Source of the DNA: Candidatus Altiarchaeota archaeon
GTDB taxonomy: Archaea > Altiarchaeota > Altiarchaeia > IMC4 > SCGC-AAA252-I15
Direction of reading: 5' to 3'
DNA length: 64,000 nucleotides
NCBI GenBank assembly: GCA_043813075.1
Contig: JBDRLL010000036.1
Location: 32,001 to 96,000 of the forward strand
Numbering within the stretch: the first letter of the stretch is position 1; every line of letters starts with the position of its first letter. Shown in pieces: positions 4,039 through 60,030 of this stretch. A model generated the notes under the pieces. The model was not told where the DNA came from. It was given only the letters and a program-made list of their open reading frames with translations, and ran no database searches. The translations under genes were made by a program, and so were the position numbers.

Positions 4039-4039
4039 T

Positions 4040-4061: not shown

Positions 4062-4155
4062 TATATAACAACTATGTTTATAAATTGCTGGTTTATTTCA
4101 GGATTTCCACATGGTTACCGGGTTCTTTATATGGAATCAGGCCATATTCTAAACC

Positions 4156-4791: not shown

Positions 4792-4794
4792 GCA

Positions 4795-6033: not shown

Positions 6034-6090
6034 GATGTTAAAAAAAGGCGTTTATGGTTAATTAGGTGAAGTAATGCCGTAGAACGTGGA

Positions 6091-7038: not shown

Positions 7039-7069
7039 GGTAATAAAACAAGGGGTTTAATAGATACTG

Positions 7070-8569: not shown

Positions 8570-8577
8570 AAAAAGGG

Positions 8578-8964: not shown

Positions 8965-9746
8965 TTTAGCTTCTTGAAGGCCTGACGACAGTCCTTGTAG
9001 TACTGGGTGTTCTTACCCAGGAGGATGCACTTGTTGGGCAGCCCTATCTTTAACGCGACTTGGGTCACGCAATCAGCGTATTCCGGGGATCCCTTACCCA
9101 AACGAGCGCACCTACCAGCCTTTCCCGCGGATTTTGCGAGGCGGATTATGCACTCGCCGTACTTTGGAGTTCCTGCATAGAGATTGCATTTCACTTGGTC
9201 GTCGTTCTCGGACTTGTACACGCAGTCAGCATACTCGGGACTGTTCTTTGGTATCCTAGAGCATAATCCCCTGCTACCGAATTTCACTGCCAGCTGGGTG
9301 ATGCATTTAGCGTAATTTTTGGTTGTGACCCCCAGAGGAAGGCAGTCCTGCCGGTTGCCTGATGATAATGCCAGGGAGCTCGCGCACTCGATTATCAGTT
9401 TATTATCCGGGTCTATGAGAGAGCAGAGGTTGGCTTTTCGGGTGTAGTTGGCGACGGCAAGTATGCACTCGGCGTAAGACGGAGTGTGGAAGCCAAGATC
9501 GAAACACCTGCCAGTATCCCTGCCGCTAACAGCCTCTGAAATCACGGCATCAACGTCCTGACGGACTTTTGGCGAAGGCGATATTCTTTTCAGGGACTTG
9601 CTTATGAAAGAAGGGGTGCTGAGGGAGGGCATGCCATAGGACTCTATCCTTGACTGCGTGAAATCTGAGATTAGGACCATAAAATGATCCATGACCATGA
9701 GCACTATGATTCCTGCGATAAGGTAGTAGTAGTTTTTATGCATCAT
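8961..9746 (-). CDS. Membrane-anchored protein with seven C-x11/12-C repeats
   Basis: N-terminal TM; repeats such as CARLGKGSPEYADC and CSRIPKNSPEYADC. Confidence 0.75.
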   Translation of the reverse strand: MMHKNYYYLIAGIIVLMVMDHFMVLISDFTQSRIESYGMPSLSTPSFISKSLKRISPSPKVRQDVDAVISEAVSGRDTGRCFDLGFHTPSYAECILAVANYTRKANLCSLIDPDNKLIIECASSLALSSGNRQDCLPLGVTTKNYAKCITQLAVKFGSRGLCSRIPKNSPEYADCVYKSENDDQVKCNLYAGTPKYGECIIRLAKSAGKAGRCARLGKGSPEYADCVTQVALKIGLPNKCILLGKNTQYYKDCRQAFKKLK

Positions 9747-44676: not shown

Positions 44677-46375
44677 CTGGAACCTCCCTTAGGGAGATGT
44701 TATACAATACAGCCCGGTACACGCCCCTCTCAATCCCCTTGTGATGCCAGTCCTCATTCTCCATTGAGAAGACGGGGGTGACGTCAAAACGGTCGTATAA
44801 CTCGAGCCCATACATCCCGGTAAGCGGGAGAACAGCCTTGGTGCGCAAGTCATACAGCTCCCCCCGGGATATGTCGAAGCGCAGGTTAGAGTATACTTTC
44901 CCGGTCTGCGTGTTCTTCAGCATCATATCCTCCTTGCTGTAGGCGAGGAAGTCCTCGATGAGTATGTCATAACCCAGGCCCTGGGTCGTAGCGTAAACGG
45001 AAGTGCCGTGACGTAATACCCCCTCAAGGTAATCCAGGTGAGCCTTGATCTTATCCGGATAAATGAGGTCGTTGCCGCTCGGATGGCCTGTAGAATTCCG
45101 CCGGGCATAATACTCATAATGCTGGCTCTCATCCATCGCGATTATCAGGGAGTCCTCCCCAGTAACCTCCCTTATCCTTTTAGCGAACTCGCACGGCCCA
45201 CAATAGCTGCGCCTGTACTCCACTATGGGGTATATGTTGTACATCATCAGGGAGACCAGTATGAACAGGACTATTCCGGCGGCAGCATCCTTGTATCTCA
45301 GCCTAATCCTGTCCAGCGAGTAAGACATCATGACGACTGGCACAGCAAGCGCGGGTATCACAAACCTCGGGGAAGTGGATATCAGATTCCCGAGATACAT
45401 GAAGAACGCCAGGAACCATAGGGACAAGGCGGCACACAAGTGCCTGTCCTCAACCCACAGGTAATACAAGCCGCCCAGGAACAAGACCCATCCTATCCAG
45501 GTCAAAGAGAACGTGGCCCAATCCAGGGACTTCGTCAGGTTCGGGGTGAACAATCCGAATCCACGGTTCGTCTCAGACCCTACGGAACGCATCTTCCCAG
45601 GCAGCGAGAACGAGGGGTCATCCATCATCTTGGGAACGAAGAAGAGGGTGAACACGATGAACGCGGGTACCGCTAGGACTAGGATCTCCCTCAATAGTTC
45701 GCCGTAAGTCTTTGACAGCATTATCTTAGTCTTCTTCCTGGATTTCTTCACCTCAACGGGCATGCTGCCGTGAGCGTAAAGCAGGATGAATGCGGGGAAA
45801 AGAAGTGCGCTCGTCTGGCGTATGGCCATCGTAAAGCCAAGGAGGCACGATGCCAAAGCCAAAAGCCTTAACGACTTCCTCTCGCCCGCCTCCAGGACAA
45901 CATAGGCTGACAGCAGCAGGAAGAACAATTCCATGCCATGCCCCTTACCGTAGGTTGAAAGCGAAAGGTGGACTGGCAGGAACGTCAGTATCAGGCCAGC
46001 GTATATGCCAGCGTAATCAGAGTTGAACAGCCTTCTCGCAAGCAAGTATGCCGCCGGAATGCATAGGGCGCCGAAGAGGACTCCAGCGAACAATACCGCA
46101 GACTCCGCGCTGGTCGCGCCCAACAACTTGAACACCGCGTAAGTGAGCGTCATCAGCACCGCCTCCCCAGGGTAACCCAGCTCCCCCTGCAGGTAGTGGA
46201 GCCTCCCTGTGGCGAGGGTGTCTTCAGCAGCCCTCGCGCCGATGACAGAGTCAGTGTGCCACAGGCCCGCTGACTTGAAGTAATACCTCACTCCAAAAGC
46301 GATGAGGAACAATACCAGCGCTATCTTAAGCTCCCTGACGCCCAAACCCGGCTTCCTCAACTTCCGCATCCGCAC
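44663..46375 (-). CDS. GT39/ArnT-like (GT-C) membrane glycosyltransferase
   Basis: WHTDS, GYPG, IRQ, PRF; multi-pass. Confidence 0.72.
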   Translation of the reverse strand: MRMRKLRKPGLGVRELKIALVLFLIAFGVRYYFKSAGLWHTDSVIGARAAEDTLATGRLHYLQGELGYPGEAVLMTLTYAVFKLLGATSAESAVLFAGVLFGALCIPAAYLLARRLFNSDYAGIYAGLILTFLPVHLSLSTYGKGHGMELFFLLLSAYVVLEAGERKSLRLLALASCLLGFTMAIRQTSALLFPAFILLYAHGSMPVEVKKSRKKTKIMLSKTYGELLREILVLAVPAFIVFTLFFVPKMMDDPSFSLPGKMRSVGSETNRGFGLFTPNLTKSLDWATFSLTWIGWVLFLGGLYYLWVEDRHLCAALSLWFLAFFMYLGNLISTSPRFVIPALAVPVVMMSYSLDRIRLRYKDAAAGIVLFILVSLMMYNIYPIVEYRRSYCGPCEFAKRIREVTGEDSLIIAMDESQHYEYYARRNSTGHPSGNDLIYPDKIKAHLDYLEGVLRHGTSVYATTQGLGYDILIEDFLAYSKEDMMLKNTQTGKVYSNLRFDISRGELYDLRTKAVLPLTGMYGLELYDRFDVTPVFSMENEDWHHKGIERGVYRAVLYNISLREVPDEVS

Positions 46376-47826
46376 TCCTCCCCGCCAGAACCCAGAGACG
46401 ACACGTGACCCCTCAATACGGCGAGACCACCCCTCAACAGCAGCTTCAAGTCCGGGACGCTCCTGACGGACATGACCTTATTGAATATGAACCCTGGCCT
46501 GAAATACACTTCACGCCAGGCCCTAGAGCACAATTCGACTATCTCCTTGGACGGTATGTTCGGGTTAACGAGGGAGGGGACGCTCATGTCATACTTCTCC
46601 CACTCGCCCTCAGGGAAACGCAGCCACCCGTTCTTCCTAGCCTCCTCGAACAAGACTGTGCCGGGATAGACTATGGGTATGGAGAACTGGACGGTGTCTA
46701 CGTCAAGCTCCTTAACGAACTCTATTGTCCTACGCAAATCCCCCCTAGTCTCCCAGGGGTATCCGAGCATCACGGTGCCGTGACGCATTATGCCAACATC
46801 CTTCGCAGCCTTGAAGCTGGCCCGGACCTGCTCGATAGTGTACCCCTTCCGTATCCTCTCGAGCGTGTCAGGGCTCGCGCTCTCGATGCCGAACTTTATG
46901 AGCCGGCAGCCGGCAGCCCTCATCTTCCCGAGAATCCCCGCGTCCACATTGTCCACCCTGCCGTTGCACGACCACACGACCTTTATGCCCCTGTCGACTA
47001 TCCCGTCGCAGAACTCCTCCATCCACTCCCGGTTGCACGTGAAAGTGTCGTCGTCAAAGAATATCTCCCTCACGCCATGCTCCGCAACAAGCATCTGCAT
47101 CTCATGGAGAACACTCTTAACGCTCCTGAACCGGACCTTGTTATGATAAAGCATCTGAGGCCACGAGCAGAAAGTGCACCTGTAGGGGCAGCCGCGGGAG
47201 GCCATCATGTAGGTGAATTCATCGTAAAGCCTCCACGACTCATGGTATTTGCGCCAGGGTATTATGGTCCGGTCTATGAAAGGCATGGAATCCAGGTCCT
47301 CGACGAGCTCGTATGGGCCGGTGTTCTTCACAACACCATCCTCGCGATAGTATATTCCGGGGGGCATGCCAGACCCGGAATCAATGTGTCTGGCCAGCTT
47401 TAGCATGCTCACGTCGTAGTCGCCGCCGGTGATGACATAGTCGAGCAGTGAATTCTCCATCGACTCCTCAGGTAGGACGGACACGTGGTCGCCGCAGACC
47501 GCGATCTTGATGTCTGGGAGCGCGTCCTTAATCCTGCCGACAGTCACCCAACTCTGCTTTATGGTGGGGGTCTTGGCCTCGTACACAAGCAAGTCAGGAT
47601 TGTTCTCAGACAGCCGTTGGATGAATTCATCATCGGTCATGGACTCGCTTATAGCGTCGATGAATCTGACGTCATAGCCCTCCTTGCTCCAGAGGGTCAC
47701 GCCCATGGCGGGAGTCATCGGGTAGATGAGCTCGTTGTCGCCCCTCATCTTCGCGAACCTGTTCTGACTCAACGTGATGAATCCTTCACCGCTCTTGAAA
47801 GGCAGATACGCGAAAACAGTCTTCAT
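46357..47826 (-). CDS. B12-binding radical SAM protein (HpnJ-like)
   Basis: SRGCPYRCTFC, FDDDTF, GIES, YPGT; N-terminal cobalamin-binding-like domain. Confidence 0.9.
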   Translation of the reverse strand: MKTVFAYLPFKSGEGFITLSQNRFAKMRGDNELIYPMTPAMGVTLWSKEGYDVRFIDAISESMTDDEFIQRLSENNPDLLVYEAKTPTIKQSWVTVGRIKDALPDIKIAVCGDHVSVLPEESMENSLLDYVITGGDYDVSMLKLARHIDSGSGMPPGIYYREDGVVKNTGPYELVEDLDSMPFIDRTIIPWRKYHESWRLYDEFTYMMASRGCPYRCTFCSWPQMLYHNKVRFRSVKSVLHEMQMLVAEHGVREIFFDDDTFTCNREWMEEFCDGIVDRGIKVVWSCNGRVDNVDAGILGKMRAAGCRLIKFGIESASPDTLERIRKGYTIEQVRASFKAAKDVGIMRHGTVMLGYPWETRGDLRRTIEFVKELDVDTVQFSIPIVYPGTVLFEEARKNGWLRFPEGEWEKYDMSVPSLVNPNIPSKEIVELCSRAWREVYFRPGFIFNKVMSVRSVPDLKLLLRGGLAVLRGHVSSLGSGGEECGCGS

Positions 47827-48785
47827 AAACCGACCCTTGATATCTTTATGCCCGAGCCACCAGCAGTCCTACACCCCATGAACTTCCTGAAAAGGCCGTA
47901 CACGAATCCCAGACCATAAGACACGTGTATGATGGGGTAGAGAAGCCACATGGCTGGGAACACCATGAACTCCCTCCGGTCCAATGCGAACTTGAGGCTG
48001 GTCAGGCCCGTGAGGGTTAAGTATAGTAGTAGGGGGAGAATATAAAAAAACCATCCGGTGGAGAGGATAACTGGGATGATCGACAGGAGATAGGCTGCGA
48101 ACCCCGTGGGCATGAGGAAAAGCGGCCTGAAACACGATGGCTGCATGAGAATCTGCTCCATCCTACCACGCCCATACCCTATGTTCTTCCGTATTATCTT
48201 GGATATGGTGCCGGCCCTGCTGTGGTGCACGAGAGCCTTAGGGTCGTATATCATACGGTATCCCCTGGACGCCATCCTGTTGAAGAACTCGTTCTCCTCG
48301 TTGGGATAGAGGTCGGCGTGCAAGCCGCCCTCCTTCAGGTAATAATCCCTCCTGCACGACAGGTTGCACAGCACCAGGTGGGTCTCATCAGCGTCCCTGA
48401 CGCCGCCTATAGGACGGAACCTATACCTCATGCTGCCTGCGCCGATCGCGGACTCCATCGTGTAGCCGAAACACCTCGCGAGCAGTGGATCCGACTCGGG
48501 AGTCACCATAGGCCCCCCGACCACCGCAACCCTTTCGTCGTCGTAATAGTGGAGGGTGTGCTCGAGAAGGTCCGGCTCCACCACCACGTCGTCGTCGAGG
48601 AAGTAGACTATGTCGCCGGAAGCCTCCGCCGCCGCCTTGTTCCGCTGCTCTGAAGGAGACTTGCCTTCCGCAACAACAACCTCCATTAGCTCCCGCGGGA
48701 AATCGAGCTTCCTCAGTGATGCGACACATACGTCCGGCCTTAAGCCAGGCCCTATCGGTATTATGAAACTAACCTTCCCCTGCAT
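47823..48785 (-). CDS. GT2 glycosyltransferase with C-terminal TMs
   Basis: FLDDD, VGGP, NEENE, YGRGR. Confidence 0.88.
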   Translation of the reverse strand: MQGKVSFIIPIGPGLRPDVCVASLRKLDFPRELMEVVVAEGKSPSEQRNKAAAEASGDIVYFLDDDVVVEPDLLEHTLHYYDDERVAVVGGPMVTPESDPLLARCFGYTMESAIGAGSMRYRFRPIGGVRDADETHLVLCNLSCRRDYYLKEGGLHADLYPNEENEFFNRMASRGYRMIYDPKALVHHSRAGTISKIIRKNIGYGRGRMEQILMQPSCFRPLFLMPTGFAAYLLSIIPVILSTGWFFYILPLLLYLTLTGLTSLKFALDRREFMVFPAMWLLYPIIHVSYGLGFVYGLFRKFMGCRTAGGSGIKISRVGL

Positions 48786-49788
48786 CTTTTGTGAATAAGT
48801 TTAATGAAACACCCTTCTTATATGCGATCAGATAACCCAACGCCACTTGAGGCAGTATGGACAGTATGAGCAGCATGAAAGACACTGCAATCATCGTCTC
48901 AGCCTGAACGCCCAGCAGGGAGAACAACAACACCAACCCCACGTCACGGGTGCCTATGCCCAGCACGGATATGGGAAGCACCTCTATCATCAACACTATG
49001 GGCATCACGAAAAGCAGGGAGAGCATGCTGAAGTGGACGCCAACCCCCTCCCCGAGTATGTAGGGCCTCAGGAAGAGTATCGTCCACGAGGCTGCTGTGA
49101 GGAGTATAAGCTGCATGAGGAAGACGGGTTCGTGTATCACACGGAGTGTGGCGTGGAATTCCCTCAAAAGCCGCTTGGAGTGGCCCTTGAACCTGTCAGG
49201 GATTATGAAACGCTGGACAGGCCTCATGAAAAACTCGGTTGTGCGGGTTGAGAAGAGTATCAGCGTGAATGAAGCAAGCATCACCGCCATCAGGAGTATC
49301 AAGAGTATGTTGTAGGAGGAGCCGCTTATCAGGAGGATTACGAAAACGTATCCCGTCGAGGCTGCGATGCAGATGTAGAAGAAGTCCAGCAGCCGGTCCA
49401 CTATCTCAACGCTCAAAGCCTTGTCAAGCTTCAATCCCCGGTCCCTCAAGTCGAAGGCCTTGACTATGTCTCCGACACGCCCGGGTGTCACCGCGCCGAA
49501 TGCTATGCCCATGATGAAGGTCTGGAAACTGTCTGTGACACTGTATTCCCTGAGGAACCTGCCGGCCAGGAGCTTCCACCGGAGGGAGCGCAGGAAGACT
49601 TCCATGCCGACGGTGACAAGGCACAGTAATATGTAGATGGGGTGCATTGAGGATATCATCCCGATAGTCGCTGGCACGTTTATCTGGGAGAGTACTAGCA
49701 TGAAGAGTATCAACCCGAAAAACGAGAGGTGACGCGAGGATATTTCCATCATCCGAACCTCAGACAGACATTCTGAGACGTAAAACAT
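48769..49788 (-). CDS. Lysylphosphatidylglycerol-synthase-TM / flippase-like protein
   Basis: LRW, TPGRVGD, DRLLD, PIS.LGIGTRD; start probably about 12 codons downstream. Confidence 0.85.
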   Translation of the reverse strand: MFYVSECLSEVRMMEISSRHLSFFGLILFMLVLSQINVPATIGMISSMHPIYILLCLVTVGMEVFLRSLRWKLLAGRFLREYSVTDSFQTFIMGIAFGAVTPGRVGDIVKAFDLRDRGLKLDKALSVEIVDRLLDFFYICIAASTGYVFVILLISGSSYNILLILLMAVMLASFTLILFSTRTTEFFMRPVQRFIIPDRFKGHSKRLLREFHATLRVIHEPVFLMQLILLTAASWTILFLRPYILGEGVGVHFSMLSLLFVMPIVLMIEVLPISVLGIGTRDVGLVLLFSLLGVQAETMIAVSFMLLILSILPQVALGYLIAYKKGVSLNLFTKDAGEG

Positions 49789-50458
49789 CTATGGGATACT
49801 TTAGTATTATATTCCAGTTAAGCTTGGACGAGCCGGAAGCCCTCGGCTTGAATATTATCGGCACCTCCCGCATGCTGAAGCCCGCCTTCATACAACGGTA
49901 GAGTATCTCAGCGCCAACCGAGTATCCGGTCGAGACGAAGTTGTCCAAGTCCAATGCCTCCAAAACCTCACGCCGATAGCACTTGAAGCCGCCGCTGCTG
50001 TCGTGCACGCCAAGGCCCAGCACGACCTTGTTGAACATGTTGGACATCTTGGACAGCATGTTCTGGATGAAAATCTTGTGCTCTGTGTCGCCGCCGTCAA
50101 CATACCTGGAGCCTATGACCACGTCAGCATCCCCGATGTTCTCCAGCAGCAGCGGTATGTACTTGGGGTCATGGCTGAAGTCCGCGTCCATCTCCACCAC
50201 GACGTCGTAGCCGTTTTCAAGGGCGTGCTTGAAGCCTGCGACACCAGCGCTCGCCCGGCCGCGCACTCCAGTGCGGACCAGCAGGTGTATCCTATCGTCA
50301 TCCTTCGCAAGTTCTGCGACAAGCTCGTCCGTGCCGTCCGGACTGTCGTCGTCCACCACAAGGACTTCCAGGCGCTCGTCCTGCGAGAGCACTGACTTTA
50401 TGATCCTGGTTATGTTGCCCCGCTCATTGTAGGTTGGAAGCATTACGATAGGCTTCAT
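49760..50458 (-). CDS. Polyprenol-phosphate mannose synthase-like GT2
   Basis: PTYNE, DDDSPDGT, MDADFSHDP, GSRY. Confidence 0.92.
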   Translation of the reverse strand: MKPIVMLPTYNERGNITRIIKSVLSQDERLEVLVVDDDSPDGTDELVAELAKDDDRIHLLVRTGVRGRASAGVAGFKHALENGYDVVVEMDADFSHDPKYIPLLLENIGDADVVIGSRYVDGGDTEHKIFIQNMLSKMSNMFNKVVLGLGVHDSSGGFKCYRREVLEALDLDNFVSTGYSVGAEILYRCMKAGFSMREVPIIFKPRASGSSKLNWNIILKYPIDVLRLRMSV

Positions 50459-50484
50459 TACAGCTAATCATTGAGACAGGGGGA

Positions 50485-52104
50485 TTAAATACGCTCGGGA
50501 TTCTCGAACACAACGTAATGAACATGATTGCTGGTTGGAAAGCCGAGATAGTCCATGAAGGATGTCCTCAACCCGGGAGGCCTCTGTTGCGAGGATTCGA
50601 TCTCATAGACCATGCTCCAGTTCGAGACCGTATCCAGGAGGGGCGAGAATTCGGTTCCATTAAGGTCGTTCAGCACCCACACTGGGAATACCGCGTAATC
50701 AATGTTCTCGACACTCAGGTTCCGGGTGAAGTCGCTGGGGGAAGTTCCGACGAGATAACGGTCGTAGGGTATGAGATTCAAGCCGTAGTACGAGAATATC
50801 TGGCGGAAGCTGACTTCATCAGCCTTTGTGTCGGGGGTGATCATCGTGAAGGCGACAAAATCCCCCTCCACAACCCTCTGGTCGATGAAGTCATTCATCA
50901 TCATCACCTCCTGGACGGGAGTCATCGACGCCTGGCAGAATACAAAAGCCTCCACCCCACACCAGAAGGTGAAGATGAATGGTATGGCGGTTAAGACGAC
51001 AACCCTCCTGGGGTGGACTGCAGCAAGATGATTGATTACGCGCTTAAGGAAGAATACGGGGGTTATCGAGAGTATGTAGACTACGGGGATGAGCATGTGG
51101 TCCGCCCGGTTGACCATCAAGAGGAACAAGAGATAGGAGTGGAGGTACACGAAAACTATGCGCCTCAGATTATCGTTCGAGATGACGAACAAACCCATCA
51201 GGGACATTATAAAAAACGATGAGAAGACTCCGGAGAGGATCATCTTATGGTCGACAGGCATGAGGGAGTATAATATCAGGGGGATGAATAGCACGAACTC
51301 CGCCCTGACGCCGGAATTGCCGGCATAAAGCGAATCAACGTATTCGAGAAGCCTGCCTGAAAAACGCGACAACACGAGTAATAGGATGGGGGAGCCTAGG
51401 ACAACGAGGAGGTATAAGCGCGAGAACTTCTGGAAATCCCTCAGAAAACCGTTGGAGTCAAACAACAGCATTAATGAGACGAATATAATCAATGGCGCCA
51501 GAGAGAGAAAAAGCGACTTGAACAGATGCTTCCTCGAATTCCAGAATAAGACTAGGGCAATCGAGAAGACAAACACCAGCCCGGAATATTCAACAAGTGT
51601 TGCAGCACCCACGAGTATGCTGGACAATGCCAGGTCCCTCTCCCGCCCGGACTCCAGGAAGTTTTGCAGGAAGTATATCGACGCCAGGACCAGGACGCTA
51701 AGGCAGTTGTTGGCGAAACCCATGCGACCCCAGAACACCAACTCCGGAGTCAACGCATATAATAGGCCCGCCAAAAACCCGTATCCTGCACCCAGGATGC
51801 GCGAGACGATAGCGTAGACTATGATCATGCCTATTAGGGACATGACTACTGAGAATATCCTTATTGCGAGCATTCCTGGACCCAGAAGTTTTATTGGGAG
51901 TATCAGGGATAGGAAGTATGCGGGAGGATGGGGTATGAAATGGTATTTGTAGGCGAACAATCGTGGGGTCCCAGCCATCAGGTTAACAGCGTAATTCACG
52001 TTAGCGTTCTCGTCCGGATCCCATTTAGGCACTGAAGACAGGTTGACGAGCCTCAATGACAATGCGAGCAGTATCACCAGCAGTATTCGATAGTCTATTC
52101 TCAA
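50485..52104 (-). CDS. ArnT/GT39-like (GT-C) membrane glycosyltransferase
   Basis: LRL...DPDE, HPP, IR; multi-pass. Confidence 0.78.
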   Translation of the reverse strand: MRIDYRILLVILLALSLRLVNLSSVPKWDPDENANVNYAVNLMAGTPRLFAYKYHFIPHPPAYFLSLILPIKLLGPGMLAIRIFSVVMSLIGMIIVYAIVSRILGAGYGFLAGLLYALTPELVFWGRMGFANNCLSVLVLASIYFLQNFLESGRERDLALSSILVGAATLVEYSGLVFVFSIALVLFWNSRKHLFKSLFLSLAPLIIFVSLMLLFDSNGFLRDFQKFSRLYLLVVLGSPILLLVLSRFSGRLLEYVDSLYAGNSGVRAEFVLFIPLILYSLMPVDHKMILSGVFSSFFIMSLMGLFVISNDNLRRIVFVYLHSYLLFLLMVNRADHMLIPVVYILSITPVFFLKRVINHLAAVHPRRVVVLTAIPFIFTFWCGVEAFVFCQASMTPVQEVMMMNDFIDQRVVEGDFVAFTMITPDTKADEVSFRQIFSYYGLNLIPYDRYLVGTSPSDFTRNLSVENIDYAVFPVWVLNDLNGTEFSPLLDTVSNWSMVYEIESSQQRPPGLRTSFMDYLGFPTSNHVHYVVFENPERI

Positions 52105-52114
52105 TGCAGGTCAC

Positions 52115-52648
52115 CTACAATGCATTCAAAGCCTCCGTGAACTCCGTGCTCCAGTCCTTCTCAAAAACCTTTCTGCCCCCGGACTCCAGCCAGGATGAGA
52201 CAACATCATAGTCTACGCCCGTGGTGGCATCCAGCTCGAGGACGTTGTTGTGGAGGGATAATGCGTCATACAATATGACTCCAGCATACTCCGCCTCCAG
52301 GTTCTCCAGTATCTTACCACGCCCATACCCCCGTTCAGACATGCGGGCGGAAAGCAGCCTCGGGTCAGCTCGCAGGACAAGCACGTGGGATACGGGCATG
52401 AAATGGCTCAGAAGACCGTCCACCACCAGAGGCTCCTTCCCGGAACCATACTCCTTCTCGAACAGGACGCCAAGCTCGTCAACGTCAACATCGAATGTCT
52501 CATGGTCCTTATCATAGTCCACACCAATACTCGACTTGGCGTAATCGTTCAAATCAAGGTACACTGCCTTTAAGAGAGAGGAAAGTTTCCTGGAATTTGT
52601 CGTCTTACCGGTGCAGGGGGTGCCCGAAACAGATAAACTGTAAACCAT
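52115..52648 (-). CDS. Adenylate kinase AK6/Fap7 family
   Basis: SGTPCTGKTT, DGLLSH, VLRADP, RGY...KILENLEAE. Confidence 0.9.
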   Translation of the reverse strand: MVYSLSVSGTPCTGKTTNSRKLSSLLKAVYLDLNDYAKSSIGVDYDKDHETFDVDVDELGVLFEKEYGSGKEPLVVDGLLSHFMPVSHVLVLRADPRLLSARMSERGYGRGKILENLEAEYAGVILYDALSLHNNVLELDATTGVDYDVVSSWLESGGRKVFEKDWSTEFTEALNAL

Positions 52649-52740
52649 GCCGAAACCCAGTATTTTGCCTATTTATATTGCTTTTACGAATAGGTTATAT
52701 AGCTAAATAAAGCATATAAAAATCGTAGGAGGTATGAAAT

Positions 52741-53067
52741 ATGAATAAGAACAAGGTTCTAATAAGCCTGCTGGCATGCCTTATTGTTTTTTCAATGGCA
52801 ACCACGGCAAGCGCAATATCAAACGCCATAAAACTGAGGGTTTGCTCGGTAGTAACGTCAATTTACCAGGCATTATGGGCCATTGCGCCGTCTTTCGTCG
52901 CATTGATGTTCATATACGGCGGCGTTAAGTACGTGTACGGCGGCGATGACCCGGGAGCGCGTAAGAGCGGTAGAAACATCTGCGTGCACGCGATAATCGG
53001 CGGAATCCTTATTGCAATAGCAAGCGCTGTGATAAGCATAATAGGATTAGGATCAGGCTGCAGTTAA
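52741..53067 (+). CDS. TrbC/VirB2-like pilin 1
   Basis: Signal peptide ...ASA; MFIYGGVKYVYGGDDPGARKSGRNICVHAIIG; SD GGAGG. Confidence 0.7.
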   Translation: MNKNKVLISLLACLIVFSMATTASAISNAIKLRVCSVVTSIYQALWAIAPSFVALMFIYGGVKYVYGGDDPGARKSGRNICVHAIIGGILIAIASAVISIIGLGSGCS

Positions 53068-53091
53068 ACACCTGCAACGGAAGGGTAGAAT

Positions 53092-53403
53092 ATGGAGGTT
53101 AAACCCATCATAGCAGTTTTGGCAATAATAGGACTATCAGGGTTAGCTTCAGCAGTGGCGATCCACATAGCACCATGCAAGATTATTGTCATGGTCAGAG
53201 ACGCGATAATGTCGCTCACAGGGATAATGGTCCTGCTGATGTTCACCTACGGCGGCATTAAATACGTCTACAGCGCAGACGACGCGGGAGGCAGGAAGGC
53301 CGCTAAGAAGATATGCGAGCACGCGATAATCGGGGGGATACTAGCAGGCCTGATGAACGAGGTTTTAACCGTACTAGGCAACACACCATACTGCCCCACC
53401 TAA
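53092..53403 (+). CDS. TrbC/VirB2-like pilin 2
   Basis: MFTYGGIKYVYSADDAGGRKAAKKICEHAIIG. Confidence 0.7.
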   Translation: MEVKPIIAVLAIIGLSGLASAVAIHIAPCKIIVMVRDAIMSLTGIMVLLMFTYGGIKYVYSADDAGGRKAAKKICEHAIIGGILAGLMNEVLTVLGNTPYCPT

Positions 53404-53404
53404 A

Positions 53405-53704
53405 ATGAGTTATAAGTCCAGAATATCGGCTGCGGGAGTTTTGTTGATAGCTTTAGCCACCAACGTGTCCGCCGGATTATTCGATAAGGTGATAACTTTT
53501 GTAAACTCACTCCAATACTCCGTGCTGGTCATGGGCAACTCGATATGCGAGGTGATGTTCGTGTACGGAGGCCTGAAGTACATATTCAGCGCAGACGACC
53601 CCAGCGGGAGGAAGACTGGCCTCAACATATGCATCGCAGCCACCATAGGGGCGCTGCTGATAGTGATTTCAAAGGAAGTCGTAAGCGTGATAGTCGTGAC
53701 ATGA
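53405..53704 (+). CDS. TrbC/VirB2-like pilin 3
   Basis: MFVYGGLKYIFSADDPSGRKTGLNICIAATIG. Confidence 0.7.
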   Translation: MSYKSRISAAGVLLIALATNVSAGLFDKVITFVNSLQYSVLVMGNSICEVMFVYGGLKYIFSADDPSGRKTGLNICIAATIGALLIVISKEVVSVIVVT

Positions 53705-53710
53705 GGGAAG

Positions 53711-54031
53711 ATGAATACGGATAACGTGAAGAAGGGGATTATCGTATTGCTGTTGTGCACGCAGATTGTCTCAGCCGCTACAACAGATCCTGCAGCCATA
53801 ATAAAAGGCCTGATATGCAGCATATGGACGGACTTCACAAAGCTCATAGGGCCTCTCGCAACCCTCATGTTCGTGTACGGCGGCGCTAAATACGCTTACA
53901 GTGCAGACGACCCGGGAGGGAGGAAACAGGCGAAGGCCATCTGCATAAACGCGATAATAGGTTTGCTTATAGCCGCATCGGCGAGGGCCATAGTAGCCGC
54001 GGCCGGGGCATCAGGAAGCATCTGCCCTTAG
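53711..54031 (+). CDS. TrbC/VirB2-like pilin 4
   Basis: MFVYGGAKYAYSADDPGGRKQAKAICINAIIG. Confidence 0.7.
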   Translation: MNTDNVKKGIIVLLLCTQIVSAATTDPAAIIKGLICSIWTDFTKLIGPLATLMFVYGGAKYAYSADDPGGRKQAKAICINAIIGLLIAASARAIVAAAGASGSICP

Positions 54032-54037
54032 AGCAGT

Positions 54038-56932
54038 TCAAGCGTCAGCGAGAGGCAGGAATACGGGGGATTCGCCAGCATCAGTTGATTCTAACACCGC
54101 AGGCTCGTCATTAAAGCCGTCGTAGCTTATCTCATAAACCCTCACATATCCCGCGGAAAACTCCTTGATAGGGCGGAAATGCCTTAAAGGCTTTATGTCC
54201 CGCGTGTACAATCCGTGAGCCTTGTACTCCCTCACATAGTGGGTCAGGTAGAGGTTCGTGAGCATGAAGTCGTTGAACTCGTCCGGAACATACACTAGTG
54301 TGTTGAATGTCGGATAGAACCTGCAGTAATACCTAGTCCTCTCGTCCACGTTGGGCGAGGCATATGAGGAGGCGCACATGAGTATGTCCCCCAGAGGCTG
54401 CACGCCGAGTATGGAAGCCTTGCTTGATTCCGCCCAATTGCTCCATGGTATGACGTCGCCGTAGGGCGTTATGACTTCCACTGAATCCAGTTCCCCATCC
54501 CGTATGTTGAATATGAGGGCTGCGATATAATTGCTGCAGCCGAAGAGAAGCCTCTGCTGCTGGTAGACGCCGCCCTTCCCGTCACCGACTATCTGCGGAC
54601 GGAGTATGCTGTTCTCAGGCAGGAACCTGCACTGCCCATAGTTCCGCCAAGCCCACATCGGGTCGGCGGCAGTGTTGGACTCGATGTCCCCGTTGGCTAT
54701 GAAGTGAAGCGCACTGCCCTTGCCGATCATCGTCCAGTCTATGGCAACGTACTTAAGTTCACGTCCAGTCTCACGGTACGCGTCATTATACTCTTCAACC
54801 ATCTTGAACGCCTCCTGCTCGCCGCTCTTGTTCACGAAGAACCTCGCCACATCCTGGATCTCGAAGTAGTCGGCCTGAAGGTTGTCTATCAAGACAGGCC
54901 TCTGAGACACTGCGGTAATCCAGTGGCCGTAGTCCCACCACGTCAGTATGGCCTCGCTCTCGGAGGTCTCGTTGTACGCCCAGTCAAGCATCGGCTGCCA
55001 GTAGTATATGTCGAGGGTGAAGCCCATGTGCATGACTATGTGGCCCACAAAACTGTTGTAGTTCCAATCCCCGAAGAATGGCACGTAAAGCACGGGCACG
55101 ACAAGCAGCATTAGGGTGCCTATTATCCTCCAGTCGTCCAGCTCCTTCTTGTTCACTGCCGCATACAGGCCGATGCTCGCGCCCAGCACGGTGACCGACG
55201 GGCTTGCCGCGAATATCCATGCGGACTTGTTCCATGACCCCCACATCATGGGTATGCTCCACGTCAATAGGAACAACGCGCCGATGCTCCGCCTGCCCAA
55301 AGCCAGGTATGCTAGTGGCACAAGCATGAAAAGGCCGTATAATAAGGCTATCCCGTACTTCCCGTAGCCGCTGTTAAGGAAGTCCACGAAACCGCCGGCC
55401 ATCGGATTCTGCTCTGAAACCGTCTGGTGGACGACACTCTTCAGCTTGGCGCCCATGATGGTAGTGTATATGTTGCCCACAACCTCGATAGGCCCTCCCT
55501 CATGGTACGCCAACAGTACGCCGCCGATTATCACGATGACTGACAGGACCAGTATCCTGTCCTGTATCAGCGAATCCACCCTATCCTCGATACTCTTGGA
55601 GGGCATCTCCTTCTTGCCGTGCATGCGGACACGAACAGCCTCAAGGATTATGGGCAGCCCTATCGCACCGGCTATGGGTATCAAAGCTATGGGAGGCATC
55701 TTCAACATCCCCAGCATCTCCAAGACAGGGAACGTGAGCTGCTCGTGAGTGAAGAGTATCGACAGCTGGCTTATGGCCACCGCTATGAACAAGTAGGGCA
55801 CAACCTTGGTGCAGTTCTCCCTGTGCATGAAGAGTATCAGCGCATAGATTATCCCAAACGCTCCGACAGTGAGGTATGCGTAAGTGTAGGCCCACGTTAG
55901 CTTGAGCATCATGAAGGACAGTCCGGCGAGCACCGCGTACTTGAAGCTCCTCCGGTGGACGGACGCGAAGAACAGGTAGAAGCTGGACAGCATGAGGAAC
56001 ATGCCGAACACGTCGTCCTCGCAGTTGGCGGCAGTCCCGTTTATCGCGAAGCCTGGACTCAGCATGAATATGAAGGCTGCAGTCAAAGCGGCAAGCCTGT
56101 TGTGGGGACGCATATCGGAGAACATCTCCTTCACCAGCAGATACATGGGTATGACAGCGAGGCCGCCCAACACGCCAGGCAATAGCATGGCGATGTCGTA
56201 GAGCGAGAAGCCGAAGGGCTTCATGACGAGGGCCATGACGCCGTACAACGTCGGGTTGAGCATTGGCGTTGAATGCTGTGGCAGACCGTGGGTGACCCCG
56301 CCCTTCGAGGCGATGTACGCCGGGTCGTCACGCTTCTGGAGGCCGCCTATCATCGGATACACTAGGTCGTCGTATTCGGTTATGTGGCCGGAGTAGACGC
56401 CGCGCATCCACTTGTACTGCCAGTAGGAGTCCAGGTTGCCGAGAAGCTCTGATGTTGCAGGCACCACGTGCAGCACTGTGGCGGAGAGGAACAACGCGAG
56501 CACCGCCGCAAGCTCCCAGTCCATGATACGGCGTATAGTCAGGGTTGTGAAGAACAGTATTATCGCGGTGATGAACGAGAAGAACAGGTAGTCCTTGTTG
56601 GCTGGATAATCATACCATCCGACATACCATGAGAACAGCGCTGATATGAAAACGAGCAGGGGGATGACGTAGGCCCAAGACGGCCTGCTTGAATCCCTTA
56701 TCGTGAAGAATAATGACGCGACGAAAAGTGCGGAAAGCATCCAGGGCGCAGTCTCGAAGAATGTTCCCGTTATCCTGACGGCCGTCAAGACCAGCACCAG
56801 CAGGGACACCAGGAACACCGGCTCACGGAACTTTGACGTTATCCTCTCATAGGAGTCTACGGACAGCGTTATGGACTTTTCTTTGGTTGAACTGCTTTTT
56901 CTAGCAGACTTCTTCTTAGAAACCATCTTCAC
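54038..56932 (-). CDS. aglB: Oligosaccharyltransferase AglB (STT3 family)
   Basis: LDSY, EDD, TVSE, WWDYG, DNL, DWTMIGK. Confidence 0.92.
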   Translation of the reverse strand: MKMVSKKKSARKSSSTKEKSITLSVDSYERITSKFREPVFLVSLLVLVLTAVRITGTFFETAPWMLSALFVASLFFTIRDSSRPSWAYVIPLLVFISALFSWYVGWYDYPANKDYLFFSFITAIILFFTTLTIRRIMDWELAAVLALFLSATVLHVVPATSELLGNLDSYWQYKWMRGVYSGHITEYDDLVYPMIGGLQKRDDPAYIASKGGVTHGLPQHSTPMLNPTLYGVMALVMKPFGFSLYDIAMLLPGVLGGLAVIPMYLLVKEMFSDMRPHNRLAALTAAFIFMLSPGFAINGTAANCEDDVFGMFLMLSSFYLFFASVHRRSFKYAVLAGLSFMMLKLTWAYTYAYLTVGAFGIIYALILFMHRENCTKVVPYLFIAVAISQLSILFTHEQLTFPVLEMLGMLKMPPIALIPIAGAIGLPIILEAVRVRMHGKKEMPSKSIEDRVDSLIQDRILVLSVIVIIGGVLLAYHEGGPIEVVGNIYTTIMGAKLKSVVHQTVSEQNPMAGGFVDFLNSGYGKYGIALLYGLFMLVPLAYLALGRRSIGALFLLTWSIPMMWGSWNKSAWIFAASPSVTVLGASIGLYAAVNKKELDDWRIIGTLMLLVVPVLYVPFFGDWNYNSFVGHIVMHMGFTLDIYYWQPMLDWAYNETSESEAILTWWDYGHWITAVSQRPVLIDNLQADYFEIQDVARFFVNKSGEQEAFKMVEEYNDAYRETGRELKYVAIDWTMIGKGSALHFIANGDIESNTAADPMWAWRNYGQCRFLPENSILRPQIVGDGKGGVYQQQRLLFGCSNYIAALIFNIRDGELDSVEVITPYGDVIPWSNWAESSKASILGVQPLGDILMCASSYASPNVDERTRYYCRFYPTFNTLVYVPDEFNDFMLTNLYLTHYVREYKAHGLYTRDIKPLRHFRPIKEFSAGYVRVYEISYDGFNDEPAVLESTDAGESPVFLPLADA

Positions 56933-57618
56933 TTGCCGTACCTACGCTCCTTAGTCCTGAAGTCAGAAACTATATCGTTTAAATCCTCCTCCGTGAACTC
57001 CTGCCATAGTTTCTCGACGAAGTATATCTCGCTGTAGGCAGACTGCCATAGGAGGAAGTTGCTTATGCGGTCCTCAGCAGTCCTTATGAGAATGTCGGGA
57101 TAATCCTTCACCCAGAGGTTATCCTTTATGCTGTCCTCAGTCAGCTCCATGCCAGACTCAACCACTTTTTTCGCGGCCTCCAGTATCTCCTGCCTTCCGC
57201 CGTATGCTATGGCAAGGTTGAGCTTAAGACGGTCATAGCCTTTAGTGGATTCCTCCAGCCGCTGAAGGTTTTCGAACACCTCCTTGGCGAGTTCAGGCCT
57301 CACGCCATTGTTGAGGAGCTGCTGCTTGTCGCCGCATATGTTTATCCTCACCTTGTTGTCGTGTATCCTGGGCTCCTTCATGCCGTCGAGCGCGTGGCTG
57401 TTGAAGACGCTGAACAGGGTCTCTATCTCGTCCTCACCCCGGTTGCTGATGTTCTCCAGCGAGAGGGCGTAGAGGGTCAGCTCGTCGACCTCGAGCTTGG
57501 AGCACCATTCAACAAAATCGTAGAACTTGCGTATACCCTGGTCGTAAGAGTCAAGAAGGTTAATGTTCTTCTTGGCCATATACCTCCTGTTACCATCAGG
57601 TATGAGCGCTATATGCAT
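56929..57618 (-). CDS. uppS: cis-prenyltransferase (undecaprenyl diphosphate synthase)
   Basis: HIALIPDGNRR, YGGRQEI, RISNFLLWQSAYSE, RRYG. Confidence 0.95.
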   Translation of the reverse strand: MHIALIPDGNRRYMAKKNINLLDSYDQGIRKFYDFVEWCSKLEVDELTLYALSLENISNRGEDEIETLFSVFNSHALDGMKEPRIHDNKVRINICGDKQQLLNNGVRPELAKEVFENLQRLEESTKGYDRLKLNLAIAYGGRQEILEAAKKVVESGMELTEDSIKDNLWVKDYPDILIRTAEDRISNFLLWQSAYSEIYFVEKLWQEFTEEDLNDIVSDFRTKERRYGK

Positions 57619-57657
57619 CGTAGATGATATCCTTGTATTAACGTGTAATTAATTGAT

Positions 57658-58155
57658 TTGGTCTTTAAATTATTAACTAACATGAATCCGGGCATAATGT
57701 TGGATGCGTCAGCCATCATACGGTCGAACCTGGACTTCTCCGAGGGAGGGTACTACATAACCCATGGGGTGATGTCTGAGATAAACGACCCAAGGGCTAG
57801 AGACGCAATTGACTATGGAATTAGAAGTTCTAACATAAAAATGCTTGAAACCGGCGGAAAACACCTTGAAAAGGCCCGTAAAGCAGCTAGAAAAACAGGC
57901 GACGACAGGGTTTTGAGCGAAACGGACTTGGAAGTCATCGCCGCCGCGCTGGAGCACGGGCTAAACGTGGCTTCAGACGACTACGCCATACAGAACACGT
58001 GCAGGACCCTGGGGATAGGATACGTTACCACACTACACGACGGGATAAGAGAGCATGTGAGGTGGCGATACGTGTGCGGGGGGTGCGGGAAGAGCATGGA
58101 GGGCCCCGGCGTTTGCAGCGTATGCGGCTCGGAAGCCAGGAGGAGGAGGGCCTAG
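57658..58155 (+). CDS. nob1: Nob1-like PIN + Zn-ribbon endoribonuclease
   Basis: LDASA, LSETD, SDDYAIQN, CxxC...CxxC; start likely at ATG about 57682. Confidence 0.9.
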   Translation: MVFKLLTNMNPGIMLDASAIIRSNLDFSEGGYYITHGVMSEINDPRARDAIDYGIRSSNIKMLETGGKHLEKARKAARKTGDDRVLSETDLEVIAAALEHGLNVASDDYAIQNTCRTLGIGYVTTLHDGIREHVRWRYVCGGCGKSMEGPGVCSVCGSEARRRRA

Positions 58156-58185
58156 TTTTTTAGCGTTCCCGATTATTCTTTACTT

Positions 58186-60030
58186 GTGAAAAAGCCATCC
58201 GTCTCCGACGAGAGGATAGTGACATCAATCTTCATTTTCACCGCGCTAGTGTTCTACGCGACTTCTGCGGGGATGAACGACAGCAACTCTGGAAGCCATT
58301 ACGCGCTCACCAAGGCCATCGCGGAGGACCAGTCCTACATAATAGACGAGTACGTCGGATACACTGGGACGATAGACGCGGCGAAGGTGGGTGAGACATG
58401 GTACTCTGACCGCCCGCCAGGCAACGCGTTCATTGCATCATTATTCTACCTGTCCGGGAAGGTGTCGTCAGCGATAGTCAGTATGCCGCGCTTCGACATG
58501 AGCTGGGACGCCGGCAACCCGGGCGCGTTCACCGTGATACTCCTGCCGGTGATCTCCGCGTCAGCGTCAGTCGCACTGCTCTACCTCATTGTCCGACGGC
58601 TCGGCGGCAGCGTCCATGCGGGAGCCATAACCGCGCTGACGCTCGCATTCTGCACGATAACATGGGAGTACGCCCAACTGCTCCACTCGCACGCGCTATC
58701 CCAAGCCCTCATGATGGCGGCAGCATATCTCGCGCTGACCATACGGGACTCGAGGAAGGATGAGGGAAAGTTCATGGCACTATGCCTTATCACAGGATAC
58801 GCGGCGATCGTGGAATACCCCAACATACTCTTGACCATCCCGCTCGCATGGTACCTCAAGACGACAGGCAAGATAAAGACAGGGAAGAAGAGGCTGTCAG
58901 ACCCCATCCTCCAGAAGGCTGCGGTAATATTCGCCGCGCCACTGATAATACTCGCAGCATACAATACGGCAAACTTCGGAAGCCCGGTGAAGACAGGCTA
59001 CTCATACAACTACCACTTCGGCTGGGCGAGGAGCATGACAGACACCTTCAGCAACCCCATGTGGGAGGGCCTGATGGGACTGCTGGTGGACTCTGACAGG
59101 ATACAGGGAGGCCTGCTGAAGACCGCGCCCATAGTCCTGCTGGCGCTCGCATGCTGGCCCCAATTCCACTCCAAGAAACGCGGGGAGGCTGTCCTGCTGG
59201 GCTCCATGTTCCTGATTCACCTGCTCTTCTACGCCAAGCACCAGACGTACTGGGGCGGGGGGGCTGAGAACACGAGATACCTGCTGACCGTCACCCCATT
59301 CATACTCCTGCCGGCATACATCTGGCTCGACAAGTATTCGCTAGGCTTCATGGAGAACAAGACAAGGATTATCGGGGCGTTAGCCTACGCAATCCTAGCG
59401 TACTATTCAGCATCCTACGTGGTGTGGGACATAATGCACTACCCAGGCCACGAGCCATTCGAGACGGTGCCATTGATGTCTCCAGGAGACGTCGCGTACA
59501 ACATCAGGGTGGTGTTCAGGAACATGTGGAACCTCCCGTTCATGCTCGGACTGATGGGCCTCTCTTACTCTGCCGTATCCCTCAGGATTAACAGGCCCCT
59601 TGGATTCCGGAGGATGGAGCGCGGACACAGGGACAAACTGGTTGCCTTGGCAGTGGCGTCGCTGCTGCTTCTAGCCTTCAGGCCGGACCTTTCCGGAGGG
59701 AAATCGTTCATACGCTGGGAGGCTAGGATGGGGGGAGGAGAATGGAGCAGGGTGGATATGCCAGTGGAAGTCCAGGGTCCGGGAGTCATGGAAGTCAGGG
59801 CTTCAGTGCAAATCCCGAAGGGCGGGAGCCTGTCGGGCACAATCACCGCCGTGGAGTGCGTTGAGAACGTGAACGTGAACAACATCGTGAAGCTGGCTGC
59901 GGAATGCGGCGGCTGCGAACACTGCAACGGATTCAATTACGACCTGACGAAGGTGGTGACGCCAGGGCTGAACAGCATCCTCTTCAGGGTGAAGAGCAAC
60001 AGGAGTGTCGTATCATTCAGGCTCGAGTGA
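58186..60030 (+). CDS. GT-C-like multi-pass membrane protein with C-terminal beta domain
   Basis: WYSDRPPG, EY, YN...FGSP, WGG...RYL. Confidence 0.65.
   Translation: MKKPSVSDERIVTSIFIFTALVFYATSAGMNDSNSGSHYALTKAIAEDQSYIIDEYVGYTGTIDAAKVGETWYSDRPPGNAFIASLFYLSGKVSSAIVSMPRFDMSWDAGNPGAFTVILLPVISASASVALLYLIVRRLGGSVHAGAITALTLAFCTITWEYAQLLHSHALSQALMMAAAYLALTIRDSRKDEGKFMALCLITGYAAIVEYPNILLTIPLAWYLKTTGKIKTGKKRLSDPILQKAAVIFAAPLIILAAYNTANFGSPVKTGYSYNYHFGWARSMTDTFSNPMWEGLMGLLVDSDRIQGGLLKTAPIVLLALACWPQFHSKKRGEAVLLGSMFLIHLLFYAKHQTYWGGGAENTRYLLTVTPFILLPAYIWLDKYSLGFMENKTRIIGALAYAILAYYSASYVVWDIMHYPGHEPFETVPLMSPGDVAYNIRVVFRNMWNLPFMLGLMGLSYSAVSLRINRPLGFRRMERGHRDKLVALAVASLLLLAFRPDLSGGKSFIRWEARMGGGEWSRVDMPVEVQGPGVMEVRASVQIPKGGSLSGTITAVECVENVNVNNIVKLAAECGGCEHCNGFNYDLTKVVTPGLNSILFRVKSNRSVVSFRLE

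Follow-up and report, generated by a model that had tools for sequence, protein, structure and literature searches.

Why should four diverged pilin genes stand in tandem between housekeeping genes of an archaeal chromosome, and what would their products assemble into? The question is raised by a stretch of 64,000 nucleotides (nt) from a Candidatus Altiarchaeota archaeon (G000:C36:32001-96000, below called the window; the G000 assembly comprises 1.80 Mb in 41 contigs and is 89% complete), in which four co-oriented open reading frames (ORFs) of 99-108 amino acids (aa) span positions 52741-54031 of the + strand. A preliminary description of this DNA had presented them as a cassette of pilins from a domesticated type IV secretion system (T4SS), with interchangeable subunits and with no machinery at hand. 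From the analysis reported here, the array probably encodes four non-redundant VirB2-family subunits of the lineage's single chromosomal, relaxase-less T4SS-like machine, which would be Sec-exported, processed, held in the membrane and polymerised by VirB4 and VirB6 into a conjugation-type filament.

The reality of the four-gene array is confirmed, far beyond chance. Successive ORFs are separated by 24, 1 and 6 nt, and we regard the four genes as one operon. In the translations, the N-terminus of every array pilin runs from a basic n-region through a hydrophobic stretch to an A/V-S-A site, the leaders of paralogs 1-4 ending in ASA, ASA, VSA and VSA, respectively. Paralogs 2-4 share 36-43% identity with paralog 1, and the 17 invariant columns among the four are concentrated in the motif MF.YGG.KY...DD...RK...IC..A.IG. 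At the DNA level the conserved core appears as a 106-nt direct repeat in four copies of 63-76% identity.

All four ORFs match the Pfam family PF18895 (T4SS_pilin), and three of them exceed its curated gathering cut-off of 26.6 bits (Table 1). Paralog 4 also matches PF04956 (TrbC/VirB2; E 1.8e-6, 28.5 bits) above the cut-off of 27.9 bits. Paralog 3 scores E 3.2e-28 against a family hidden Markov model (HMM) made from alignment A2, an alignment of which paralog 3 itself is part. Judged by these profile matches, the four ORFs belong to the VirB2/T4SS_pilin family. The best Protein Data Bank (PDB) sequence match of the family profile is the R388 VirB2 pilin TrwL, a weak match over 62 residues (E 0.21). 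An AlphaFold2 (AF2) model of paralog 4, made from a 35-row alignment, reached a mean predicted local distance difference test (pLDDT) score of 89.1 and places helices at residues 3-23 (the leader), 27-63 and 68-98 with a loop at 64-67, i.e. a helical hairpin. Thus two claims of the preliminary description are borne out: that there are four adjacent genes of about 100 aa with a leader, two helices and a conserved loop (ORFs, alignment, PF18895 and AF2), and that they are VirB2/TrbC-like (PF18895 and, in paralog 4, PF04956).

Where, then, is the machine? On the window's contig no match was found to a VirB4-type ATPase, a relaxase or an integrase, as the preliminary description had said of the surroundings of the array. 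Its picture of a cassette without machinery is true within the window but was wrong in scope, since a T4SS-like module lies outside the window on contig C10, at about 20.9-36.3 kb (L001:5882-20000, L005:1074-4268). The genome search for VirB4 and VirB6 that had been proposed as a check yields a VirB4-like ATPase and a VirB6-like protein there, and the refuting condition that the preliminary description had set for itself accordingly does not refute it. PF18895 matches 14 places in G000 at E<=0.01, and the family HMM finds ten ORFs: the four of the array, three small pilins on C10 (115, 100 and 119 aa) and three large proteins of 1736, 2188 and 514 aa, each with an N-terminal pilin-like hairpin. 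The module consists of ten ORFs (Table 1). Radical-SAM and PMT_2 genes border it at one end; at the other stand SepRS, a PLD-family gene and a D-aminoacyl-tRNA deacylase gene. ORFs of 546 and 574 aa gave no Pfam or NCBIfam match.

The 759-aa ORF of the module matches PF19044 (7e-26), AAA_10 (2.5e-15) and the PDB VirB4 4ag5 (1.6e-32). Among NCBIfam models it scores best with NF045971 (conju_CD1110; 1.7e-88, 297.7 bits) and NF045975 (VirB4 of a Mycoplasma integrative and conjugative element (ICE), Mbov_0397; 5.6e-73), and by these scores it is a member of the VirB4 family. PF03135, the model of the VirB4 N-domain, has no match in G000. The adjoining 294-aa ORF covers positions 83-277 of NF045975 and the 759-aa ORF positions 284-893, and the complementary coverage therefore indicates a VirB4 split into two ORFs. 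The start of the 294-aa ORF bears a weak PrgI/VirB3-like similarity.

Four lines of evidence suggest that the 770-aa protein is VirB6-like. It scores 22.6 bits against TrbL (6.5e-5; cut-off 25.9), and its nearest named Atlas clusters, found with a language model, are TrbL_3/TrbL, with or without T4SS_pilin (score 0.91-0.92), from Saccharimonadota, Roizmaniibacteriota and Bacillota. Its AF2 model has a mean pLDDT of 56, with values of 70-88 over residues ~40-375. A Foldseek search with this model returned chains of R388 TrwI/VirB6 at all of ranks 1-5 (E 0.017-0.1, probability 0.98-1.0), and VIA-align placed a TrwI/VirB6 chain, 7o3v_F, at rank 1 (Z 8.9, root-mean-square deviation (rmsd) 4.9, 230 of 261 residues aligned) as the sole chain of 48,161 to reach Z>=8. 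Finally, residues 87-146 align to the pilin profile (hhalign probability 67.7, E 4.9e-5). A profile of the VirB6-like family searched against PDB sequences gave nothing meaningful.

Four large proteins of G000, one of them within the module, start with a pilin- or VirB6-like hairpin and continue in a long remainder without a Pfam family (Table 1). They are possibly adhesins anchored to a pilus or channel, and the giant VirB6-like proteins hint at adhesion.

Could the array and the module nevertheless belong to a conjugative element? In the 89%-complete genome no match was found to the relaxase families PF03432, PF08751, PF01076 and PF02486, or to the tyrosine integrase family PF00589. PF02534 (VirD4) has two matches on other contigs; neither extends beyond positions 19-105 of the 468-position model, and both, at 22.5 and 22.3 bits, only just exceed the cut-off of 20.1. 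The system thus lacks a relaxase, an integrase or a convincing coupling protein in this assembly, and it is not a conjugative element.

The distribution of the system in relatives points the same way. In a set of 41 related genomes from one order, PF18895 matches occur in 40 (2-30 per genome) and a VirB4-type ATPase in 37, mostly as a single copy of ~760-790 aa; the exceptions are G021 without both, G015 and G030 with pilins and no VirB4 found, and G025 with a VirB4 fragment. When a wider sample of the phylum was searched with the protein as query, VirB4 orthologs (57-88% identity) were found in 45 of 61 genomes, all of them in the window's order (45 of 49), and in 0/4 and 0/8 genomes of the two families of the sister order(s). 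The VirB3/B4N-VirB4C pair is kept in all 15 VirB4 loci that were fetched, and a pilin ORF in 13 of them. Loci of families f1 and f3 retain much or all of the gene order orf92, pilin A, giant, orf156, VirB6-like, orf402, VirB3/B4N, VirB4C, pilin B, pilin C, with orf402, orf92 or pilin A undetected in some; the single f4 locus, a 7.4-kb contig, keeps only orf156, VirB6-like, VirB3/B4N and VirB4C. In two of the fetched loci SepRS follows the module, as in G000. The module appears to be inherited vertically across the order, and this pattern of distribution and synteny is that of a domesticated system passed on by descent and speaks against a mobile element. The domesticated T4SS-like system of the preliminary description is strengthened in this way, both by the inheritance across the order and by the missing relaxase, integrase and convincing coupling protein. 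Named homologs of the pilin and the ATPase carry the labels Candidatus Altiarchaeota or Altiarchaeales, and public annotations call some of the ATPases VirB4 or TraC, so that the parts are already annotated in public records but apparently not analysed.

More distant VirB4 relatives (36-42% identity) come from records with titles such as Iainarchaeum, Woesearchaeota, Pacearchaeota and Nanoarchaeota, and 35 of 39 such loci contain an ORF found by the pilin HMM. Modules of VirB4 plus a single pilin were seen among Iainarchaeum, Woesearchaeota, Pacearchaeota and Nanoarchaeota records (L082-L123). Several relatives have a second, divergent VirB4 of 33-41% identity, in some cases as ORFs of ~1100 aa (G004:C51, G013:C14, G016:C24, G018:C26/C33, G007:C94, G019:C43).

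The position of the array is conserved as well. The aglB neighbourhood was fetched at 20 loci (G003, G009, G014, G015, G017 and G018 were left out), and a tandem pilin array adjoins the aglB ortholog in 13 of the 14 genomes of family f1 examined. Copy number ranges from 3 to 14: three copies in G010; four in G001 and G005, and at least four, at contig ends, in G020 and G006; five in G012, G016 and G004; six in G013; nine in G002; eleven in G011; and 14 in G008 and G019. No array stands beside aglB in G007 or beside the second aglB paralog of G013, and outside f1 none was found in the four testable loci (the flank in G022 was too short). The linkage to aglB and the housekeeping and envelope-glycosylation neighbours uphold the non-mobile chromosomal setting described earlier.

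In a maximum-likelihood tree of 95 pilins (109 columns, short sequences, support by the Shimodaira-Hasegawa-like approximate likelihood ratio test (SH-aLRT) only) each array gene pairs with the same-position gene of G001, a genome of the same genus, with SH-aLRT values of 93 for paralog 1 with p4 of G001 and 84 for paralog 2 with p3. The p1 clade, including paralog 4, and the p2 clade, including paralog 3, each comprise eight genomes (SH-aLRT 92 and 93, respectively). From these positional clades we conclude that the paralogs are old and have kept their places in the array; only other genera have expanded it to 11-14 copies.

Across the same 95 pilins the profile columns 46-85, i.e. the end of helix 1, the loop and the start of helix 2, form a conserved core with a mean entropy of 1.3-2.2 bits, and variation is greater (2.7-3.3 bits) in the N-terminal half of helix 1 and towards the end of helix 2. 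Solved conjugative pili have a lumen lined by the loop and bound lipid, with the termini facing outward. Given that orientation, and if the analogy holds, the entropy pattern is compatible with a conserved lumen and a diversified exterior. The lipid stoichiometry of conjugative pili is given in the available part of PMC9905601.

Two cysteines, one close to where helix 1 begins and the other in the C-terminal tail, are also characteristic of the family. By hmmalign both are present in 85 of the 95 pilins and neither in 4; 6 have the C-terminal one alone and none has the N-terminal one alone. Among the exceptions are three truncated ORFs, pilins B and C, whose cysteine falls outside the counting interval, and five p2-orthogroup members; paralog 3, one of these five, has neither an N-proximal nor a C-terminal cysteine. 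The pair may form a disulfide that staples the ends of the hairpin, which would perhaps parallel the cyclisation of TrbC and TrhA; cyclic conjugative pilins are treated in PMC12037004 and PMC13434634, as far as their available text goes.

In sister family f5 the pilins occur as poly-pilins, with 4-11 pilin domains in one reading frame (Table 1) and both cysteines retained in each domain. Since diverged hairpins are fused into a single chain, pilins are likely to be used jointly and in fixed proportions. Some of the poly-pilin ORFs finish in Cys-rich, extracellular-looking tails.

How might such an array work? Each pilin is probably a Sec substrate from which signal peptidase I removes the leader behind the A/V-S-A site, and the mature protein would stay in the membrane as a two-helix hairpin. 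The array pilins most likely serve the single machine encoded on C10. Its ATPase and VirB6-like platform would pull the hairpins out of the membrane for polymerisation into a tubular filament of the conjugation type, with the conserved loop (YGG.KY..ADDP.GRK) turned to the lumen or lipid head groups and the variable helix ends, stapled by the cysteine pair, turned outward. The age and non-redundancy of the paralogs make it likely that they assemble together, or take separate roles as major and minor subunits, and unlikely that one replaces another. By analogy with known systems, the use is most likely contact-dependent exchange between cells, be it DNA import as in Ced and Ted or an interaction with partner cells of the kind proposed for Patescibacteria and nanohaloarchaea.

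Several results weigh against this proposal. Foldseek found no PDB match for the pilin model at E<=0.001, and VIA-align ranked a chain of the A. pernix pilus (8dfu_B) fifth (Z 8.2, rmsd 3.4, 74 residues aligned) with a score that ties with unrelated helical hairpins and so does not discriminate; the fold searches fail to single out conjugative pilins because a helical hairpin resembles many unrelated folds. The VirB6-like and VirB3-like assignments combine sub-threshold sequence scores with moderate structural matches. The array lies at least 50 kb and a contig away from the C10 module, and a functional link between them is suggested by shared family and co-occurrence in the genome only. In genus g19 VirB4 was found in neither of two genomes, one of which (G030, ~92% complete) has six PF18895 matches. 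Poly-pilin chains with up to 22 membrane helices are hard to square with simple extraction of single subunits. The best NCBIfam match of a pilin, that of paralog 4 to NF045849 (pilin-like conjugal transfer protein; 6.1e-6, under the cut-off), is to the 'pilin-like' protein of a Mycoplasma ICE, and the top-scoring families of the VirB4 are of the monoderm FATA type, where pili are not the rule.

The last two of these results also speak for the main rival explanation, in which the VirB2-like hairpins remain in the membrane as a pilus-less, monoderm FATA-like channel or scaffold and are no filament subunits. We consider it unlikely. It can appeal to the ATPase scores (CD1110 1.7e-88, Mbov_0397 5.6e-73) and to NF045849 as the sole NCBIfam match of note for paralog 4, as well as to the pilin-like hairpin with which the VirB6-like protein itself begins and to the 4-11 fused hairpins of relatives, which resemble polytopic membrane proteins. 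However, each array gene has its own cleavable-looking leader, and variable helix ends combined with a conserved loop are the pattern expected of an exposed polymer. Moreover, VirB2 arrays of Patescibacteria also go with a FATA-derived VirB4, and a putative pilus is discussed for them in the available part of PMC12102498.

A filament is retained, but with the four genes as interchangeable alternative major subunits for surface or antigenic variation, in the explanation closest to the preliminary description, and this seems very unlikely. A copy number of 3-14 across genera, sequence variation concentrated in the presumed exterior and a mere 36-43% identity between paralogs would all suit it, whereas positional orthology across genera (the p1 and p2 clades), gaps of 24, 1 and 6 nt that imply co-transcription, and the translation of many domains as one chain in relatives do not; interchangeability is therefore not supported. 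A shufflon or invertible-element mechanism was considered and rejected, as no inverted repeats were found in 52400-54300. A further possibility, that an integrated conjugative element or plasmid carried the array as cargo or left it behind as a remnant, is barely credible, even if the pilin family is typical of conjugative elements and the second, divergent VirB4 of some relatives could be mobile: the same chromosomal site beside aglB is occupied in 13 of the 14 family genomes examined, the window neighbours are all housekeeping genes, neither a relaxase of the four families nor a PF00589 integrase was detected in the 89%-complete genome, and the guanine-plus-cytosine (GC) content of the array region (0.495) is inside the range of the window (0.488-0.575).

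The proposed T4SS-built filament can be extended into a picture for the whole order, which is in its entirety rather doubtful. The order of Altiarchaeota-labelled archaea would possess a vertically inherited T4SS that builds a heteropolymeric pilus from at least seven VirB2 paralogs, disulfide-stapled and not cyclised; the poly-pilins of the sister family, with 4-11 hairpins, would be pre-assembled stretches of filament, the giant VirB6-like proteins would serve adhesion, and the whole would be the archaeal, DPANN-side counterpart of the Patescibacteria T4SS for contact-dependent exchange with other cells.

Table 1. Features of the array and its immediate surroundings, of the T4SS-like module and other large hairpin-headed proteins of G000, and of poly-pilins in relatives. 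Positions refer to the window unless a contig or locus is given.
Feature	Position	Strand	Length	Matches and remarks
AAA_18 P-loop kinase domain protein	52115-52648	-		upstream divergent neighbour; only AAA_18 domain confirmed
Putative promoter region of pilin operon	52649..52740	+	92 nt	AT-rich divergent intergenic region, common with upstream gene
Pilin paralog 1	52741..53067	+	108 aa	aglB-distal, p4 of 4; PF18895 E 2.5e-8, 34.3 bits, above cut-off
Pilin paralog 2	53092..53403	+	103 aa	p3; PF18895 E 1.2e-7, 32.1 bits, above cut-off
Pilin paralog 3	53405..53704	+	99 aa	p2; PF18895 E 1.4e-5, 25.5 bits, slightly below cut-off
Pilin paralog 4	53711..54031	+	106 aa	aglB-proximal, p1; PF18895 E 1.1e-9, 38.7 bits, above cut-off
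AglB/STT3 oligosaccharyltransferase	54038..56932	-		convergent neighbour; PF02516 STT3 1.1e-13, PF22627 AglB_core 1e-8
C10 module ORF 1			92 aa	no Pfam or NCBIfam match
C10 module ORF 2, pilin A				PF18895 7.6e-12
C10 module ORF 3, giant VirB6-like protein	C10:21775-28152	+	2125 aa	pilin-like hairpin at residues 159-213, then more membrane helices
C10 module ORF 4			156 aa	no Pfam match; weak, sub-threshold NCBIfam scores (S27ae 1.5e-4, TiaS 1.1e-3)
C10 module ORF 5, VirB6-like channel protein			770 aa	
C10 module ORF 6			402 aa	no Pfam or NCBIfam match; best Atlas score 0.79, no lead
C10 module ORF 7, VirB3/VirB4 N-terminal part			294 aa	
C10 module ORF 8, VirB4 ATPase (VirB4-C)			759 aa	
C10 module ORFs 9 and 10, pilins B and C				PF18895
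Large hairpin-headed protein	C10:78558-83768	-	1736 aa	
Large hairpin-headed protein	C20:17283-23849	+	2188 aa	
Large hairpin-headed protein	C12:18098-19642	+	514 aa	
Poly-pilin, G034	L026 (G034:C13) 2007-4475		822 aa	7 domains
Poly-pilin, G034	L026 (G034:C13) 4541-6172		543 aa	4 domains
Poly-pilin, G034	L026 (G034:C13) 6198-9371		1057 aa	7 domains
Poly-pilin, G024	L027 406-3021	-	871 aa	6 domains
Poly-pilin, G035	L028 1-3316	-	1105 aa	11 domains

The pilin genes share their upstream intergenic region with a divergent gene that had been called AK6 and for which the kinase domain alone was confirmed; the other neighbour named beforehand, aglB, is borne out as STT3/AglB. The putative promoter of the operon in this region is suggested by TATA-like AT-rich runs alone. 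A GGAGG ribosome-binding site is present at 52728-52732, with the first pilin ATG 8 nt downstream. A scan of the array region for sigma-70 promoters and terminators gave nothing better than shuffled sequences, and the sigma-70 model is inapplicable to archaea.

A cis-prenyltransferase gene is next after aglB. Further along, the window contains housekeeping genes (glutamate synthase, arginine and riboflavin synthesis, a proteasome subunit, FttA and the primase small subunit) and numerous genes of envelope glycosylation (four PMT_2 GT-C enzymes, a GT87, GT2s and an LPG_synthase_TM protein), and no tRNA genes were found in it. The immediate neighbourhood of the array (42853-52104 and 54038-60030) is dense in envelope-glycosylation functions, with a phosphodiesterase/sulfatase-like protein, three PMT_2 GT-C enzymes, a B12-radical SAM enzyme, two GT2s, LPG_synthase_TM, AglB and cis-prenyltransferase. 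N-glycosylation of the pilins as the reason for the linkage to aglB was considered and rejected: the mature parts of all four are without an N-x-S/T sequon, and the sole sequon among them is NVS in the leader of paralog 3. PMT_2-like genes precede the C10 module as well. We treat aglB as the genomic context of the array, not as a demonstrated functional part. Elsewhere in the window two argininosuccinate synthase paralogs (23379-24671 and 26268-27512) flank an argininosuccinate lyase gene (24760-26271), and long ORFs of 918, 484, 486 and 408 aa have no Pfam match at E<=1e-5 (989-3745 (+), 32506-35421 (+) and 41599-42822 (-)).

What does the locus add to what is known? Domesticated T4SS-type pili of archaea have so far been described for two crenarchaeal groups (Ced and Ted), and VirB2 arrays for Patescibacteria; our full-text literature searches yielded no paper on such arrays in Altiarchaeota. 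Here the same set of parts is met as a conserved chromosomal feature of an entire uncultivated archaeal order, and its positionally conserved paralogs, covarying cysteine pair and poly-pilin fusions offer handles on multi-subunit VirB2 polymers. Such a filament, if it exists, would be a candidate organelle for contact between cells or for the exchange of DNA, in a lineage whose biology has been learned almost wholly from metagenomes.

By analogy, the system may work like Ced/Ted and the T4SS of Patescibacteria. For the latter (CPR), the available part of a 2025 article in Microb Genom (PMC12102498) reports 441 VirB2 arrays of 2-11 genes with a mean identity of ~25%, PF18895/PF04956 pilins often near virB4, and a relaxase that is mostly absent, a co-opted function being proposed. 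The Altiarchaeota system resembles them in its VirB4, FATA-related by model scores, in its tandem arrays of diverged pilins and in having no relaxase that could be found, and the Atlas neighbours of its VirB6-like protein include clusters from Saccharimonadota and Roizmaniibacteriota. It differs in its archaeal host, in a main array that is unlinked from virB4 and stands beside aglB, in a VirB4 that occupies two ORFs, in the giant VirB6-like proteins that accompany the module, and in the poly-pilin fusions of relatives.

Ced of Sulfolobales and Ted of Thermoproteales are DNA-import systems according to the portion of PMC9905601 (Nat Commun 2023) that was available, and like the present system they are archaeal, chromosomal, domesticated T4SSs with VirB4-, VirB6- and VirB2-like parts and no relaxase. 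In the same portion TedC is given a leader of the signal-peptidase-I type, which the array pilins also appear to have, and a relation between CedA and CedA1, and between VirB6 and VirB2, is reported, which the pilin-homologous N-terminus of the VirB6-like protein here echoes. In contrast to Ced, the ATPase is no CedB ortholog, reaching 57.2 bits (1.2e-15) with the CedB equivalog NF041017 against a cut-off of 700, compared with 298 bits for CD1110; and there are seven small pilin genes, where that text names one pilin for each system, CedA1 and TedC.

With VirB2, TrbC and TrwL the array pilins share the Pfam families and the plan of leader, helix, charged loop and helix, TrwL also being the best PDB sequence match, but their genes are without a mobile element, a relaxase or a coupling protein. 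Unlike the head-to-tail cyclisation of TrbC and TrhA, as far as the partly available sources describe it, the conserved cysteine pair at the hairpin ends may here replace cyclisation. The giant 'SPEARE' proteins of nanohaloarchaea, which carry VirB4/TraG domains and for which the available part of PMC10266531 (Front Microbiol 2023) proposes a role in cell interaction, likewise combine, in a DPANN-type archaeon, T4SS ATPase genes with giant membrane-anchored surface proteins. There, to go by the same part of that article, which mentions no pilin arrays, the giant protein itself holds the ATPase domain, whereas the giants described here hold VirB6/pilin-like membrane domains.

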